Made by a program: the position numbers and the translations under genes. This document shows, in pieces, positions 50,111-56,933 of a stretch of DNA of 64,000 nucleotides; position 1 is the stretch's first letter, and the number at the start of each line of letters is the position of its first letter. The stretch comes from Candidatus Aenigmatarchaeota archaeon (GTDB lineage: Archaea > Aenigmatarchaeota > Aenigmatarchaeia > QMZP01 > JAFGSV01). Location of the stretch: the NCBI GenBank assembly GCA_016934325.1, contig JAFGSV010000033.1, positions 1,959 to 65,958 of the forward strand, in the 5' to 3' direction. Under the pieces are notes generated by a model. That model saw only the letters and a list, made by a program, of their open reading frames with translations, ran no database searches and had not been told where the DNA came from.

Positions 50111-52306
50111 ATGGCGAAAGCAGAAATCGCGCAGACTATCAAGGAACTGATGATGAAGCCGGATCAGATCAGGAACATCGGGATAGTCGCGCATATAGAC
50201 CACGGGAAGACGACCCTGACGGACAACCTGCTGGCAGGCGCCGGCATGATGTCGGAGGAGCTCGCGGGCCATCAGCTCGCCATGGATTTCGTCGAGCAGG
50301 AGCAGGAGAGGGGCATAACGATCTACGCCGCCAACGTGAGCATGGTCCACAAGGTCGGCGACAGGGACTACCTGATCAACCTCATCGACACCCCCGGGCA
50401 CGTCGATTTCGGCGGGGACGTGACCAGGGCCATGAGGGCGGTCGACGGGGTGGTCGTCGTCGCCGACGCCGTCGAGGGCTGCATGCCCCAGACGGAGACG
50501 GTCCTGAGGCAGGCCCTCAAGGAGAGGGTCATACCAACTCTCTTCATCAACAAGGTCGACAGGCTCATCAAGGAGCTGAAGCTGACGCCAGAGCAGATGG
50601 AGGAGCGGTTCAAGAAGATAATAACCGAGGTCAACATCCTGATACAGAAGTTCAGCGAGCCCGAGTACAAGAACAGGTGCACGGTGAACGTCGTGGAGGG
50701 CAAGGTCGCTTTCGGGTCCGCCCTGAGGAACTGGGCAATTTCCATCCCCATGATGAAGGAGAGCGGGATATCGTTCAAGGACATCATAGAGATGACCGAG
50801 CGCGGCGAGGAGAAGGAGCTGGCCAAGAAGGCCCCCCTGCACAGGGTGGTCCTGGACATGGTGATAAAGCACCTTCCCAATCCCCTCACCGCCCAGTCCT
50901 ACCGGGTGGAGAGGATATGGCAGGGAGGTGAGGAGGAGTCCGTTGTCGGCAAGAGCATGAGGTCATGCGACCCGGACGGGAAGCTGGCGGCTATCGTCAC
51001 CAAGATATACCCCGACCCGCACGCGGGATACGTCGCCACCGTTAGGATATTCTCGGGCAGGATAAGGAGCGGCCAGGAGCTTTACCTGGTCGGCTCGCAG
51101 AAGAAGGAGAAGATACAGCAGGTCTCCATCTACAAGGGACAGCAGAGGGTAACGATGGACGAGGTCGTCGCCGGCAACATCGTCGGCATCGTCGGCCTGA
51201 AGAGCGCGTTCTCTGGGGAGACGCTGTGCCAGCCCGACCACGTTATACCCGCTTTCGAGAGCATCAAGCACATATTCGAGCCTGTCGTGACGAAGGCCAT
51301 CGAGCCGAAGCAGCCCAAGCAGCTGGCGAAGCTCATAGAGTTCCTGCGCAAGACCAGCATGGAGGACCCCACGATGACCGTGAAGATCAACGAGGACACG
51401 GGGGAATACCTCGTCAGCGGGCTGGGTGAGCTTCACATAGACGCCAAGATAGAGAGGCCCCTCAAGGACGCGGGCATAGAGGTCAGCGTCTCGCCGCCCA
51501 TCGTCATCTACAAGGAATCCGTCAAGGAGAGGACCCCGGCCCCCGTCGAGGGCAAGTCCCCGAACAAGCACAACCGCTTCTATTTCATCACGGAGCCCCT
51601 TGAGGAGGCCGTGTTCAAGGCCATGATGGACGGGGATATCCCCGACCAGGAGGTCAAGAAGAAGAACCTTGAGCTGATCGACAAGCTCACCGGGCTGGGG
51701 ATGGACAGGGACGAGGTGAAGAAGATGAAGCTCATCCACAACAGGTGCATATTCCTGGACGTCACGAGGGGCGTCCACGCCATCCTCGAGGTCATGGAGA
51801 TGCTCAAGCAGGCCTTCCAGGAGTCCATGGACGAGGGTCCGCTTGCCAGGGAGCCATGCTCCGCCGTGAAGGTCAAGATCATAGACGCCAAGCTCCACGA
51901 GGACGCCATCCACAGGGGCCCGGCGCAGGTCATACCGGCCGTCAGGAGGGCTATAAGGCAGGCCATGGTAGGCTCTAAGGCTTTCATACTGGAGCCAAAG
52001 CAGATCATCAGGATAGACGTCCCGACCGAGCAGATGAGCGGGGCCATGAAGGAGGTCCAGAACAGGAGGGGACAGATCGTCGAGATGAGCGAGGAGAGGG
52101 GCGTCAGCATAATCAAGGCTAAGCTGCCGGTCGCCGAGATGTTCGGGTTCAACTCCGCCCTGAAGTCGGGAACGGGGGGGCAGGGCTTCTTCTGGCTCAT
52201 AGACGTGAAGTACGAGCCGCTCCCAAAGGAGCTGGAGCAGAAGGTCGTAACGCAGATCAAGCAGAGAAAAGGCATCACTGAAGAACAGGAAGACGTCGAA
52301 GAATGA
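50111..52306 (+). CDS. fusA: Translation elongation factor aEF-2
   Basis: AHIDHGKTTL, EQERGITI, DTPGHVDF, NKVD, GLGELH, diphthamide loop LHEDAIHRGPAQ. Confidence 0.98.
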   Translation: MAKAEIAQTIKELMMKPDQIRNIGIVAHIDHGKTTLTDNLLAGAGMMSEELAGHQLAMDFVEQEQERGITIYAANVSMVHKVGDRDYLINLIDTPGHVDFGGDVTRAMRAVDGVVVVADAVEGCMPQTETVLRQALKERVIPTLFINKVDRLIKELKLTPEQMEERFKKIITEVNILIQKFSEPEYKNRCTVNVVEGKVAFGSALRNWAISIPMMKESGISFKDIIEMTERGEEKELAKKAPLHRVVLDMVIKHLPNPLTAQSYRVERIWQGGEEESVVGKSMRSCDPDGKLAAIVTKIYPDPHAGYVATVRIFSGRIRSGQELYLVGSQKKEKIQQVSIYKGQQRVTMDEVVAGNIVGIVGLKSAFSGETLCQPDHVIPAFESIKHIFEPVVTKAIEPKQPKQLAKLIEFLRKTSMEDPTMTVKINEDTGEYLVSGLGELHIDAKIERPLKDAGIEVSVSPPIVIYKESVKERTPAPVEGKSPNKHNRFYFITEPLEEAVFKAMMDGDIPDQEVKKKNLELIDKLTGLGMDRDEVKKMKLIHNRCIFLDVTRGVHAILEVMEMLKQAFQESMDEGPLAREPCSAVKVKIIDAKLHEDAIHRGPAQVIPAVRRAIRQAMVGSKAFILEPKQIIRIDVPTEQMSGAMKEVQNRRGQIVEMSEERGVSIIKAKLPVAEMFGFNSALKSGTGGQGFFWLIDVKYEPLPKELEQKVVTQIKQRKGITEEQEDVEE

Positions 52307-52381: not shown

Positions 52382-55135
52382 GTGTTCCATACGGCGAAGC
52401 CGAACATAGCCCAAAAGAAGCTGCTTGCCCTCATCAAGAAGCTGGCGGCGATCAGGGGCAGGCATACCGAGCTCATAACCATCTACGTCCCGGCCGGCTC
52501 GAACCTGAACATAGTGGCCGACCAGGTCAAGCAGGAGCAGGGCACGGCGTCGAACATAAAGTCCAAGACCGTGAGGAAGAACGTGCTCGGGGCGCTCGAG
52601 AAGATAAACCAGCACCTCAAGCACTACAGGCAGACGCCCCCCAACGGCCTGGCCCTGTTCTGCGGCAACGTGAGCGAAAAGGAGGGGGAGAGCGACCTTG
52701 AGCTGTGGGCGTTCGAGCCCCCGGAGAGGCTGAACCAGAGGCTGTACAGGTGCGACCAGGAGTTCGTCCTTGACCCGCTTGCGCACATGGTCAGGGAGAG
52801 GGAGATATACGGCCTCGTCGTGCTGGACAAATCCGAGGCGGAGATTGGCACCCTGAAGGGCAAGCGGGTGGAATCGCTCAAGCATCTGGAGTCCCTCGTC
52901 CCGGGAAAGACGAAGAAGGGGGGCTGGTGCGTGCATGAGGATACCCTGATACAACTGGCTGACGGGAGAATCGAAAAGGTTAAAGATCTGAAGGATGACG
53001 AGTTTCTATGTTACGATTTCAATAAGCTGGGAGTTGCTCCCGGAAGACATGCCCACTTCTTTTCAAGGAATTCCGACGATGCGTTGAGAATAAGAACATC
53101 CGCGCCTACGTCGGAGATAGTCGTAACTCCTGAGCATAAGTTCTTCATAGCGAATGAAGACGGTTTCGGAACGAAGGATGCCGCCGATATCAGGCCGGGC
53201 GATCGGCTTCTTGCGGTGAAATCGCTCGCAATAAATGGCGTGAAGATAAACATCGACGTAAAGCTACCATTTAGATATCAGATTACGGAGAAAGGTCTGC
53301 GACATCTCGTGAAAAGAAGGGAGGAGCTAGGATTATATCAATGGATGGTAGCAAGAAGGGTTGGGATATCCCAAACCGCCATCTCGAAACTCGAGCTTGG
53401 TGAAAGAACGCTGAAATTGGCTAATTTGAACAAGATATTAGACATGTACGGGATTGGGAAATCGGAATTCTTCGATAATTTCGTAATCAAGGAAAATAAG
53501 CTGGATTTCACGCCTGAATTGAACCGGGACCTTGCTCAGCTGCTTGGATACATGCTTGGGGATGGGAACAGGGATAAGAACAGAATAACATTTTCTGAAA
53601 GGGAATTGCCGACATTGAAGATATATGAGAGAATGGTTCAGCGGCTATTCTCCATCAGCGCCAGAATAAAACCGAGGGTGGGGAAAGGCTATTACGAAAT
53701 GAGGATTCACAATAAATTCATACTTTCCCTGATCGAAAGGGAGTTCCCCGGCATATTGACACCTTGCAGAAAGGACATCCCCGATAACGTCTGCAAATCA
53801 AGAAAACCCGAACTTGGGGGGTTCATCAGGGGCTTGTTTGATGCCGAAGGCTGGATCGACAAGAAAGCGAAGATTCTGGGCATAACCATGAACAACAGGG
53901 AAGTCATCAATAAAGTTCGGCTGATCCTTCTGAGGTGGGGCATAGTGTCCTCATTGAGAGAAGTCAAACGGAAAGGGAGCTTTGCCAGGAAGATGCGTTA
54001 TAATCTGAGAATCACAGATGCGGAATCATTGAGGGAGTATTCGAAGAGTATAGGATTTTCCTCCGCTAGGAAGAGGAAAGAACTCATAGGTGTAGTCGTA
54101 AAGTCAAATGTTTCATATGTAGACCAAATCCCTATCAGCGGTCGGCATCTTCTAAATTTGGTCCATAAGCTGGGATTAACGACGGGGGATTTTCCCAAGG
54201 TTCAGGATTTCTTTTACGACAGAAAGGGCATGAGCTATAGAATTTTCAAAAAGAACATTTATGACATTGTTAGAAGGAAGTTTTCCGGGAGCAATGAATC
54301 TGAAGAATTAAGTTATATGAAAAGCATCTTGGACTCGGATATGATATCGGTCGTAGTGAAGTCTGTTGATGCCGTGAAGACGAATAGGCCTTTTTATGAC
54401 ATGCATGTTCCCGGTTTTAATAGCTTCATAGCAAACGGTTTCGTATTGCACAATTCCCAGGCAAGGTACGCCAGGGTCAGGGAGGGATTGCTGAACGACC
54501 ATATGAAGAAGACCGGGGAAATCGCCACGTCATATTTCAGGGAGATGCGGGACCTGAAGGGGATAATAATCGGTGGGCCCGGCCCGATAAAGGACATGTT
54601 CTTCAACGGCGGCTTCCTGCCGACGGACGTGAAGTCGAAGGTCTTGGGCGTGGTTGACACCTCCTACACCGGCAAGTTCGGGCTCAATGAGATTCTGGAA
54701 AGGGGGGAGGACATCCTCGCCGAGGCGTCCGTTACCGCCGAGAGGAAGCTGCTCGAGAGGTTCTTCTCGGAGCTGGCGAAGGATTCCGGCCTTGGGGTCT
54801 ACGGCCTCAAAGAGACCATGAAGGCCCTCGAGTCAGGGGCCGTGGAGATACTGCTGGTATCAGAGTCCTTCGACTGGGTCCACGCTCAGCTCGAGTGCCC
54901 GTCATGCGGCGCCAAGCTGGAGAGGATGGTCAGGCGCGACAGGCTGGATTCCGTCAAGTGCCCCAAGTGCGGGGCGTCGATGGAAGCCGGGCAAGAAGAG
55001 GACGCCATTGAGAAGCTGGCGGATGCGGCGGAGAAGGTGGATACCACGCTGGAGATAGTCTCCGTGGATACGAGGGAAGGCGAGCAGCTCTTCGAGATGG
55101 GCGGCATAGCCGGTATACTGCGGTACAGGGTCTAG
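52382..55135 (+). CDS. prf1: Peptide chain release factor aRF1 precursor containing an intein (predicted spliced product 408 aa)
   Basis: RGRHTELITIYVP, TASNIKS, YRCDQEF, spliced GKTKKGGW|SQARYAR, GPGP.K, C-domain with zinc ribbon, GGIAGILRY. Confidence 0.93.
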   Translation: MFHTAKPNIAQKKLLALIKKLAAIRGRHTELITIYVPAGSNLNIVADQVKQEQGTASNIKSKTVRKNVLGALEKINQHLKHYRQTPPNGLALFCGNVSEKEGESDLELWAFEPPERLNQRLYRCDQEFVLDPLAHMVREREIYGLVVLDKSEAEIGTLKGKRVESLKHLESLVPGKTKKGGWCVHEDTLIQLADGRIEKVKDLKDDEFLCYDFNKLGVAPGRHAHFFSRNSDDALRIRTSAPTSEIVVTPEHKFFIANEDGFGTKDAADIRPGDRLLAVKSLAINGVKINIDVKLPFRYQITEKGLRHLVKRREELGLYQWMVARRVGISQTAISKLELGERTLKLANLNKILDMYGIGKSEFFDNFVIKENKLDFTPELNRDLAQLLGYMLGDGNRDKNRITFSERELPTLKIYERMVQRLFSISARIKPRVGKGYYEMRIHNKFILSLIEREFPGILTPCRKDIPDNVCKSRKPELGGFIRGLFDAEGWIDKKAKILGITMNNREVINKVRLILLRWGIVSSLREVKRKGSFARKMRYNLRITDAESLREYSKSIGFSSARKRKELIGVVVKSNVSYVDQIPISGRHLLNLVHKLGLTTGDFPKVQDFFYDRKGMSYRIFKKNIYDIVRRKFSGSNESEELSYMKSILDSDMISVVVKSVDAVKTNRPFYDMHVPGFNSFIANGFVLHNSQARYARVREGLLNDHMKKTGEIATSYFREMRDLKGIIIGGPGPIKDMFFNGGFLPTDVKSKVLGVVDTSYTGKFGLNEILERGEDILAEASVTAERKLLERFFSELAKDSGLGVYGLKETMKALESGAVEILLVSESFDWVHAQLECPSCGAKLERMVRRDRLDSVKCPKCGASMEAGQEEDAIEKLADAAEKVDTTLEIVSVDTREGEQLFEMGGIAGILRYRV
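52928..54454 (+). mobile_element. Intein (509 aa) with LAGLIDADG homing endonuclease and XRE-type HTH
   Basis: Cys1 (CVHEDT), block B TPEH, LLGYMLGDG and FIRGLFDAEG, block F/G FYDMHV...FIANGFVLHN followed by Ser+1; visibly lower GC than exteins. Confidence 0.93.
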
Positions 55136-55340
55136 TCCTGGCGGGGCTATTTATACCCCATTGATATGGGTTTTTATAACCATATATCTTCATTTCGAAT
55201 GCAAATATGTTAGGAACTGGTCATGAAAACCCCAAAAGATGCAATATTTCCTTCTTAAAGCCCTGAAGCCAATTATACATATAATTATTCAATTTCTCTG
55301 GAAAATTCTGGAAAATGAATGATTTATAAGGAGCAAGGGC

Positions 55341-55562
55341 ATGTCAAATCTATTTACCGGGAGGAAACTGGTATTCAGACCAATGGAACAATTTGAAGTT
55401 AATCTAAGCAAAATGAGTAGGGATGCTAAAATTGAGAAAATAAATTCTTTTGCTCAACACGATCATTATCAAGTGAAGTATAAATCCGGATTTCTTCATT
55501 TGTTAGACAAGATTTTCGTTGAAAAGGGTGAATGGGTAGAAATCAGAACAAATGAAAATTGA
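55341..55562 (+). CDS. Hypothetical protein (73 aa) in AT-rich islet
   Basis: SD-like AAGGAG upstream; no motif. Confidence 0.4.
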   Translation: MSNLFTGRKLVFRPMEQFEVNLSKMSRDAKIEKINSFAQHDHYQVKYKSGFLHLLDKIFVEKGEWVEIRTNEN

Positions 55563-55693
55563 AGAAATAACTACTTATACCCATTATATAATAATTAACC
55601 CCTGAACAAACTCAGAGTAAGTATTCCTGGCAGGGCCACTGTTACTGGAAAAATGTGATGATTATTTATATGAGTGTATAATAAAATATACAT

Positions 55694-56236
55694 ATGTCTA
55701 TAAAAATAGACAAACTGATGAATTTGTTTCTGGAAGACTCCTATAGCGAGTTCAATCTGAGGGAAGTCGCAAGAATTGCAAAGTTAAATCCAATGACTGC
55801 TTCAAAATATCTTAAATATCTCTTGAAGGAGTCTGTAATTAAAAAGAGGCCGGAGAGAAATTTCATCCTGTTTTCTGCAGATACAGAAAGTGAGAGATTC
55901 AAGGATATGAAAAGGTGCTTCAATATAAAAAAAATCAGATCATCAGGACTTGTGGAATATATAGAGAAAGAGCTTAGCTATCCAGAGGTGATAATCCTTT
56001 TTGGATCCTATGCGAAGGCAGAGAACAGTGCAGAAAGCGACATAGACATTTTTATTCTTTCCGAGTCGAATAAGAAGCTGGACCTGTCGGTATTTGAATC
56101 AAGAATCGGAGCGGAGATTCAGATTTTCAAACATTCAAGGAAGGAGTTCGATGCAATGAAGAGGGACAACAAAGAGCTTCTGAACAACATATTGAACGGG
56201 GTCTGTTTGAGCGGTTTTTTAGAGGTTTTCAAATGA
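55694..56236 (+). CDS. MNT-type nucleotidyltransferase with N-terminal HTH (putative antitoxin)
   Basis: FNLREVARIAKLNPMTASKYL HTH; IILFGSYAKAE...SDIDI Pol-beta motif. Confidence 0.85.
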   Translation: MSIKIDKLMNLFLEDSYSEFNLREVARIAKLNPMTASKYLKYLLKESVIKKRPERNFILFSADTESERFKDMKRCFNIKKIRSSGLVEYIEKELSYPEVIILFGSYAKAENSAESDIDIFILSESNKKLDLSVFESRIGAEIQIFKHSRKEFDAMKRDNKELLNNILNGVCLSGFLEVFK

Positions 56237-56655
56237 GATTTGAAGATTTCATAACGTCAAAGAAAGTCAGAAGGGGAAATCCCGATATACAGCTTGCAAA
56301 ATCACTGGTGAAGATGTCGGATAATCACCTGAAATCGATAGAATATATGAAACTGACGGAAACAAGTTCGGCCACCATAATGACAAACTATTACGAGTCC
56401 CTCAGAGAAGTGGTTGAGGCGATTGCGGCAATTGATGGCTACAAGGTATACTCCCACGAAGCATTTACCCATTTTCTCAGAGAGAAAGGAGAAGATATTA
56501 TATCCATTAAGTTTGACAACTACAGGAAAATCAGGAACAGCGTCAACTACTATGGGAAAACTGTCGAAGTAGGGATTACGGCGGCAAACACAGAGGAAAT
56601 CAAGAGAATGATATATCAATTAAAGGAGAAATATCTGAAAAGAATACTGGGCTGA
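56233..56655 (+). CDS. HEPN-like protein (putative toxin)
   Basis: ATGA overlap with MNT; YYESLRE...SHEA...YRKIRNSVNYYG (R-N-x3-Y variant of Rx4-6H). Confidence 0.75.
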   Translation: MRFEDFITSKKVRRGNPDIQLAKSLVKMSDNHLKSIEYMKLTETSSATIMTNYYESLREVVEAIAAIDGYKVYSHEAFTHFLREKGEDIISIKFDNYRKIRNSVNYYGKTVEVGITAANTEEIKRMIYQLKEKYLKRILG

Positions 56656-56681
56656 AATTCGCAATAAATCAATAAAATCAA

Positions 56682-56933
56682 CTAACCCCTGAAATCGTGC
56701 GAATATGGCAGCTGATTCGGGATCTCGATCTCGTCGTTCTCGACGTTCGTACTGTTTCCCCATGGAATGTCATCAGAGCTGACGATGATGTGCAGATGCT
56801 CGTCCCGCTCATATCGCATGTCGTATCCCTGCAATTTGTCCGCGAAATGAAGTATAAGCGCCCAGTCTGCGCTGGATAACCCCCAGCCGGACAGCGTTCT
56901 TCTAAGCTCGACAAGGGCATCATCAAGATTCAT
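56682..56933 (-). pseudogene. Short ORF, possibly a truncated gene remnant
   Basis: 83 aa, own TATA-like TTTAAA upstream, ends abruptly at the GC/AT junction of the islet; truncation is inferred. Confidence 0.3.

Follow-up and report, generated by a model that had tools for sequence, protein, structure and literature searches.

The window analysed here, a stretch of 64,000 nucleotides from the genome of a Candidatus Aenigmatarchaeota archaeon, specifies the archaeal release factor aRF1 (52382–55135, plus strand), and this gene holds an intein, in all likelihood an ordinary mobile element, within a release factor which, judged by its sequence, is predicted to work without the catalytic, methylated glutamine of the GGQ motif. 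The intein enters the catalytic loop directly behind its third residue, and that residue is a tryptophan. GGQ is cited as one of a handful of motifs that all class-I release factors share across the domains of life, and the methylation of its glutamine is also called universal. In roughly half of the families of this archaeal phylum, a third residue other than glutamine is a lineage trait. The preliminary description of this DNA recognised the intein and overlooked GGW in the place of GGQ.

Tryptophan in the place of the catalytic glutamine

The open reading frame (ORF) of the aRF1 precursor starts with GTG and runs uninterrupted for 917 codons plus stop, in a 1.24 Mb metagenome-assembled genome (MAG) which is 79% complete. 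A Pfam scan of the 917 amino acid (aa) precursor revealed the domains eRF1_1 (E 2.8e-13; the match begins 16 residues after the start of the protein), eRF1_2 and eRF1_3 (E 3e-26), eRF1_2 being interrupted by intein domains. The N-extein (52382–52927, on the plus strand like all features of this gene; 182 aa; guanine-plus-cytosine content (GC) 0.610) contains the domain that recognises stop codons and the beginning of domain M, and the C-extein (54455–55132; 226 aa; GC 0.605) contains the remainder of domain M together with domain C, with matches to eRF1_2 and eRF1_3. The spliced sequence aligns without gaps to Halobacterium aRF1 (PDB accession 4af1, E 7e-82) and to human eRF1 (1dt9, E 5e-69). 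In both alignments Trp182 (tgg, 52925–52927) sits on the glutamine of GGQ; it is the last residue of a Gly-Gly-Trp (ggg ggc tgg, 52919–52927, aa 180–182) in the usual place of that motif, and at the same time the −1 residue of the intein. The loop after predicted splicing is GGWSQARYARVRE, in which the tryptophan is followed by Ser+1, the splice nucleophile, and Gln+2 (tcc cag, 54455–54460), to give GGW-SQ.

The conservation of key residues was taken from an alignment of 47 homologues (alignment A1), and in it the Ser+1 residue, S692, is invariant. The NIKS motif (52553–52564, aa 58–61), found by reading of the sequence, has invariant residues at N58 and K60, and the YxCxxxF motif (YRCDQEF, 52745–52765, aa 122–128) at Y122, C124 and F128. 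The protein thus lacks the canonical GGQ, having GGW, and possesses eRF1_1, eRF1_2, eRF1_3, NIKS and YxCxxxF; since these last two motifs are intact, it is a classical aRF1 rather than Pelota or a Vms1-like factor.

Genomes and families of the phylum are denoted below by codes (G###, f1–f40), the search set being 371 genomes. The loop was read directly in 85 of these, of which 36 have GGQ and 49 another third residue. Tryptophan is found in families f1–f6, f18, f22, f24 and f33, methionine in f19–f21 and f23, phenylalanine in f17 and alanine in one genome of f18, while glutamine is present in f7–f16, f25–f32 and f34–f40. Tyrosine was seen once, among the intein-bearing alleles. The tryptophan is independent of the intein, because intein-free alleles also read GGW: among the best 120 intein-free protein clusters 96 have GGWSQ, 17 GGWSA(N/S) and four GGQ, so that GGW accounts for 113. 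In a tree of 110 non-redundant exteins the Trp clade has a support of 99 and the clade of Met, Trp and Phe alleles one of 98, and the Trp clade also includes a few nested GGQ alleles. Supported branches force at least two changes between glutamine and another residue, and the best tree has five. Two GGQ genomes additionally contain aRF1 paralogues of 220–234 aa consisting only of domain M (L054, G249:C1:634947-635279; L060, G244:C1:838053-838427); one of the two loops reads GGQSAARY and the other GGSSSSRY.

The methyltransferase which modifies this glutamine shows a matching distribution. In Haloferax the glutamine of the aRF1 GGQ is methylated by Mtq2, whose NPPY motif is essential, and orthologues exist, according to the authors, in all archaea (PMC6144793). 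The 371 genomes were screened with the NCBIfam profile TIGR00537 at its own cut-off, and NPPY was read in a handful of the positives. Matches above the cut-off occurred in 127 genomes and were located in GGQ families. Among the genomes with a directly read loop, 29 of the 36 with GGQ exceeded the cut-off and two more fell just below it with a full-length NPPY protein, and an NPPY-type Mtq2 was found in none of the 49 non-Gln genomes. The best match in the MAG itself (E 2.1e-6) is KsgA-like, and in family f1 all 13 genomes stay below the cut-off. The clearest example is family f5, in which GGQ genera with Mtq2 (G291, G292, G297, G298, G302/303) occur together with GGW genera that lack it (G294, G299, G307, G308, G313, G320).

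Weaker matches to TIGR00537 were rejected as Mtq2. Those of 80–90 bits in Trp-type genomes, at first sight exceptions, are without NPPY. In the non-Gln genomes G268 and G047 (87–91 bits) the proteins have 382–384 aa, cover only part of the profile and have WNGPT for NPPY; the other sub-threshold matches have WNVPF, ANLPF or NPPIRAG at that position. A class of similar score and ORF length appears as the second match, beside a true Mtq2, in GGQ genomes. Two kinds of related protein were recorded in passing. L136 (G336:C73:3220-3681), from a GGW-type genome, has 348 aa, and its C-terminal part is a HemK-like domain with NPPY which scores 62.8 bits against TIGR00537. In the family f33 (GGW) genomes G235 and G238, some 2 kb separate aRF1 from a gene for an MTS/RsmC-like methyltransferase that reads NPPIRAG, and the same protein is present in G239 (L135, G235:C2:10448-10708; L138, G238:C7:38480-38740; L137, G239:C23:133881-134138).

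By profile search the MAG has one gene of the eRF1 family. No second release factor was detected in this 79% complete genome with PF00472, PF03463 and PF03464, nor was a bacterial RF-1 domain. The same holds for eight near-closed GGW or GGM genomes (G270, G271, G299, G313, G265, G100, G101 and G148), in which neither a second GGQ-bearing protein of the eRF1 family nor a bacterial RF-1 was found. Some near-closed genomes of these types specify an additional protein of approximately 340 aa, with 26–32% identity and no Gly-Gly loop, which is presumably Pelota.

The ribosomal partner of the loop was investigated in 23S genes retrieved with Rfam RF02540 from five non-Gln and seven Gln genomes; the MAG itself is without a 23S gene. 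The segments compared were A2451/C2452, 2503–2507, G2583–U2585 and A2602, which we take to be the relevant positions of the peptidyl-transferase centre in E. coli numbering. None of them shows a change that tracks the third loop residue across these five and seven genomes. Co-evolution of the ribosome with the loop motif was therefore rejected as far as tested, C2452U and the variants at 2503/2504 being present in both groups. Several genomes, GGQ and non-GGQ alike (L114–L125), have C2452U together with CC or CU at 2503–2504, which is unusual beside A2451. The 23S genes of the phylum are often 3.6–4.5 kb in length (L119–L125: G313, G100, G101, G249, G030, G191, G265), and those of G265, G030 and G191 break off right after GGGGATA, in the A2451 region. 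Some of the inserts in 23S genes (e.g. G101 and G265) are AT-rich and ORF-like; they resemble rRNA introns that carry homing-endonuclease genes and interrupt the peptidyl-transferase centre.

Proposed peptide release with a changed loop

In canonical termination the side chain of the glutamine has a packing role, its methyl group makes further van der Waals contacts with U2506, A2451 and A2452, and a main-chain NH helps to hold the water (PMC5799190). In the GGW factor the chemistry of peptidyl-tRNA hydrolysis would fall to the backbone of the two glycines and to the main-chain NH of the third residue, and a large hydrophobic side chain would provide the packing that N5-methyl-glutamine otherwise gives in the peptidyl-transferase centre. 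The glutamine two residues further on, which is nearly always present, may contribute. We rate the chances as about even that approximately half of the families of the Aenigmatarchaeota terminate translation in this way, that is, without the catalytic glutamine and its methyltransferase, the packing of N5-methyl-glutamine being replaced by that of tryptophan, methionine, phenylalanine or tyrosine.

Several points weigh against this interpretation. Mutants of GGQ in eRF1 and in RF1/RF2 were reported as inactive or lethal in classical mutagenesis work cited in PMC6514570. Alleles with GGWSAN or GGMSAR have no glutamine at +2, which therefore is not a general substitute. The MAG is 79% complete and may have a second release factor in the part that is missing. 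Five GGQ genomes show no Mtq2 (G002, G249, G225, G164 and G027), distant HemK-like proteins occur in some Trp-type genomes, and the association of glutamine with Mtq2 rests on few independent events (perhaps 3–4 contrasts). Finally, both splicing of the precursor and peptide release by the GGW factor are predictions from sequence, and the organisms are uncultured.

A possible though less probable explanation is that the glutamine has shifted along the loop, the tryptophan or methionine at position 3 acting as a spacer within an otherwise canonical mechanism; this is compatible with replacement of the packing role. Glutamine is found at +2 in 50 of 57 non-Gln alleles and in 5 of 53 GGQ alleles among the 110 exteins, and the loop region gives a weak Pfam match to acVLRF1 (E 4.9e-6). 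Loops of the type GGxSQ (GxuQ) have been described in the VLRF-1 families (PMC6514570). The correlation, however, has only two independent contrasts on well-supported branches, and Gln+2 is missing from the alleles with GGWSAN or GGWSAS (together 17 among the 120 best intein-free clusters) and from those with GGMSAR. Any glutamine at +2 would also be unmethylated, since the methyltransferase is missing, and in the HMMER alignment with 1dt9 the +2 residue falls at the start of the post-loop helix, on the alanine of GGQSA.

It is unlikely that the GGW or GGM protein reads stop codons only, with the peptidyl-tRNA being cut by an unrecognised factor or by one supplied by the host of these likely episymbionts. 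In its favour are the textbook view that the glutamine of GGQ is essential, the many DPANN proteins of unknown function and the incompleteness of the MAG. Neither the MAG nor the eight near-closed genomes yielded such a factor, and the tryptophan is strictly conserved over alleles that are 58–88% identical, which indicates selection on this residue.

The intein, its relatives and its age

The insert in aRF1 is an ordinary, intact class-1 intein (Cys1 ... His-Asn), predicted to self-splice. Reading of the DNA and the Pfam matches showed the limits given in the preliminary description to be exact: 52928–54454, 1527 nucleotides or 509 aa, running from Cys to His-Asn before Ser and splitting GGW from SQ. 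With slashes marking the joints, the junction DNA is ggg ggc tgg / tgc gtg cat ... cac aat / tcc cag. Within the insert Pfam identified Intein_splicing (PF14890, E 7.8e-16, aa 190–691), LAGLIDADG_3 (PF14528, E 1.3e-20) and HTH_3 (E 9.5e-9). The first-step splicing nucleophile, Cys1 (TGC, 52928–52930; C183), is invariant, as are H252 of block B (TPEH, a TxxH motif, T249-P-E-H252, 53126–53137) and both the penultimate histidine and the terminal asparagine of block G (CAC-AAT, 54449–54454; H690, N691). Junction residues, block B, the profile and fold of the Hint domain and a host that is contiguous once the insert is removed are all those of a class-1 intein. Chance is no explanation of the insertion, since intein-free alleles up to 88% identical run contiguously across the site.

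The endonuclease also appears to be intact, with both LAGLIDADG motifs present as earlier described. The first (LAQLLGYMLGDGN, 53531–53569) includes LLGYMLGDG (aa 387–395) with a putative catalytic Asp394, and its G393, D394 and G395 are invariant; the second (LGGFIRGLFDAEGW, 53813–53854) includes IRGLFDAEG (aa 482–490) with a putative catalytic Glu489, A488 and G490 being invariant and D487 and E489 at least 90% conserved. The endonuclease is separated from the N-terminal lobe of the Hint domain by an XRE-type helix-turn-helix (HTH_3, 53312–53467, aa 311–362, intein aa 129–180), which is kept through most of the aRF1 intein family, with R313, Q320, Q331 and E338 invariant. This region forms five helices (aa 303–367) in the AF2 model, matches C.BclI (2b5a, E 5.7e-4) and is probably an extra DNA-recognition module of the endonuclease. 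In the AF2 model of the whole precursor (mean pLDDT 88) the 509 aa domain sits at the tip of the loop, and Foldseek retrieved with this model both release factors (eRF1 5lzt, TM 0.80; 4af1) and inteins (TliVMA 7qss, TM 0.74; PI-PfuI 1dq3; PI-SceI 1vde).

Splicing would follow the standard four-step class-1 pathway, with an N–S acyl shift at Cys1, transesterification to Ser+1 and cyclisation of Asn509, and would yield an aRF1 of 408 aa. As the intein occupies the catalytic loop of a release factor, the precursor should be without activity before splicing. The predicted endonuclease would cut intein-free alleles at highly conserved DNA, and the element would thereby spread by homing.

A search with the whole precursor gave at least 188 protein clusters (at 90% identity) of intein-bearing aRF1, from DPANN archaea; all 120 of the clusters listed have both eRF1 and intein domains. 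Those with names belong to Aenigmarchaeota, Woesearchaeota, Nanoarchaeota, Micrarchaeota and Nanohaloarchaeota, and some bear the JGI label "eRF1/intein/homing endonuclease". In all intein-bearing clusters examined the insertion bond is the same, with GGx before the initial Cys and the final His-Asn before Ser. Within the phylum eRF1_2 was matched in 350 of the 371 genomes and is split at profile position 41 in about 60–70 of these; eight of nine split cases inspected were real inteins, and the ninth was a gene cut by the end of a contig. The site is thus occupied in roughly a fifth of the genomes of the phylum. Intein presence changes at least 18 times on the tree of 110 exteins, and such a frequent and sporadic occurrence is as expected of a homing element. 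Endonuclease-free mini-inteins of 134–135 aa were noticed at the same aRF1 site in GGW hosts (P0040, P0062, P0090). The suggestion that aRF1 is an uncatalogued host stands in so far as a literature search turned up no description of an intein in aRF1, or of GGW or GGM release factors; the same data make plain that inteins at this site are common in public collections. The aRF1 intein is accordingly a new host and site for the literature, yet common in public data.

Intein-free alleles among relatives, which the preliminary description had proposed to look for, were found at up to 88% identity. They include both genomes of the same genus, G280 and G281, whose exteins are 82–86% identical to those of the window; at the empty site of G280, 21 of the 24 central nucleotides equal the joined flanks of the window, which makes this site a candidate target of the endonuclease. 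In the sister genus, G276 and G272 have inteins of 510 aa at the site which are 43–46% identical to that of the window, in exteins that are 76–78% identical. These data fit two histories: either the intein was gained inside the genus, its donor being unsampled, or the relatives have lost theirs. The recent invasion proposed earlier is made plausible by the two empty sites of the genus, but the nearest intein in the databases is at most 47% identical and AT-richness is no clock. The intein is indeed more AT-rich than its exteins, as had been noticed, with GC 0.442 (third codon positions, GC3, 0.532) compared with 0.610 and 0.605 (GC3 0.896 and 0.836). Seven genes of this genome bear inteins, however, and five of the seven inteins are similarly AT-rich (GC 0.40–0.47 in hosts of 0.57–0.61), which makes composition a weak sign of recent arrival and argues against its use to date the event. 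The hosts, named by eye, are presumably an inositol-phosphate-synthase-like protein, MCM, an AMP/thymidine phosphorylase-like protein, a FlaI/VirB11-type ATPase, RNA polymerase A'' and CDC48, in addition to aRF1. The six other genes lie at C34:12025-13296, C29:6499-8055, C27:91391-92857, C27:103162-104577, C7:21574-22782 and C26:13905-15029, and four of their inteins are markedly AT-rich.

The inteins also appear to be related to the type of loop they occupy. At an equal extein distance (about 58% identity), inteins in GGW hosts are 44–47% identical to that of the window and those in GGQ hosts 31–34%, a pattern suggesting that the lineages of this intein track the target sequence.

The preliminary description had raised conditional gating of termination, with splicing responding to temperature, redox or salt. 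The position in an essential catalytic loop, a Cys1 that could in principle sense redox, and the persistence of mini-inteins of about 134 aa in relatives speak for such a switch. The closest relatives do without an intein and its occurrence is sporadic (18 changes among the 110 tips), nothing of a regulatory kind was seen, and an intact-looking endonuclease with a foreign-looking composition fits a selfish element; we consider this proposal very doubtful. That the gene is a pseudogene, part of a chimeric contig or marred by a sequencing error at the Trp codon, as its origin in a MAG might suggest, is effectively refuted by an unbroken frame of 917 codons with all key residues intact, by the normal synteny with aEF-2 (50111–52306) directly upstream and by GGW itself, which recurs in over 110 independent clusters and in dozens of genomes.

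Just downstream of aRF1 lies an island of low GC (0.30–0.42; 55100–56900), within which a 180 aa ORF (55694–56236) has a nucleotidyltransferase-like GS..D.D motif.

Known systems and significance

The aRF1 intein shares its class-1 residues with the archaeal inteins that contain homing endonucleases (TliVMA/PhoVMA, 7qss, 7qsu, 7qst; PI-PfuI, 1dq3; PI-TkoII, 2cw7) and with PI-SceI (1vde). In these as in the aRF1 intein, a LAGLIDADG endonuclease with two motifs interrupts the Hint fold, and the element sits in the best-conserved motif of a protein that is essential. A phmmer comparison with 1dq3 gave E 2e-9, and the identity to inteins of solved structure is just 15–17% or so. What sets the aRF1 family apart from these is the XRE-type helix-turn-helix, its host and its insertion directly behind the third residue of the GGQ loop; neither this host nor this site is described in any paper that was found.

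With the canonical factors (Halobacterium salinarum 4af1, Aeropyrum pernix 3agk, human 1dt9 and 5lzt) the aRF1 of the window shares the three domains, NIKS, YxCxxxF, the Gly-Gly, the RxxR helix after the loop and a zinc ribbon in domain C (CPSC...CPKC, 54896–54970; Zn_ribbon_8, E 4.6e-4), which aligns with that of 4af1. It differs from them in the tryptophan which replaces the methylated catalytic glutamine, in Gln+2, in a change of RF to RY in the next helix and in the missing Mtq2. The spliced GGWSQ resembles the GGxSQ (GxuQ) loop of aVLRF-1, acVLRF-1 and Vms1-type proteins, ribosome-rescue factors which have no C-terminal pelota-type domain and either an N-terminal coiled coil or no codon-recognition domain (PMC6514570). 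Unlike them, the protein described here has the full classical architecture, including eRF1_3, and is the only release factor seen. Pelota/Dom34, of the same eRF1 superfamily, naturally lacks the catalytic glutamine as well. It has an Sm-like N-terminal domain without NIKS or YxCxxxF and a poorly conserved loop, and coexists with a true aRF1, whereas the aRF1 of the window has a strongly conserved loop and a canonical stop-codon domain.

The element is an undescribed yet abundant intein allele in a translation factor, and its homing-endonuclease lineages appear to track a changing target codon. Here natural lineages have replaced the glutamine in what is apparently their sole release factor and are without its methyltransferase, while relatives that keep both provide built-in controls. 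Natural GGW, GGM and GGQ alleles that are 58–88% identical allow a direct comparison of what the glutamine side chain and its methyl group contribute, be it to catalysis or to packing and the exclusion of nucleophiles. If the proposed mechanism is true, the side-chain amide would be dispensable for peptide release in living cells, the loss of Mtq2 from reduced genomes would have been compensated by a hard-wired loop, and the intein lineages at the bond between GGx and serine would have diverged along with their variant target sequence.

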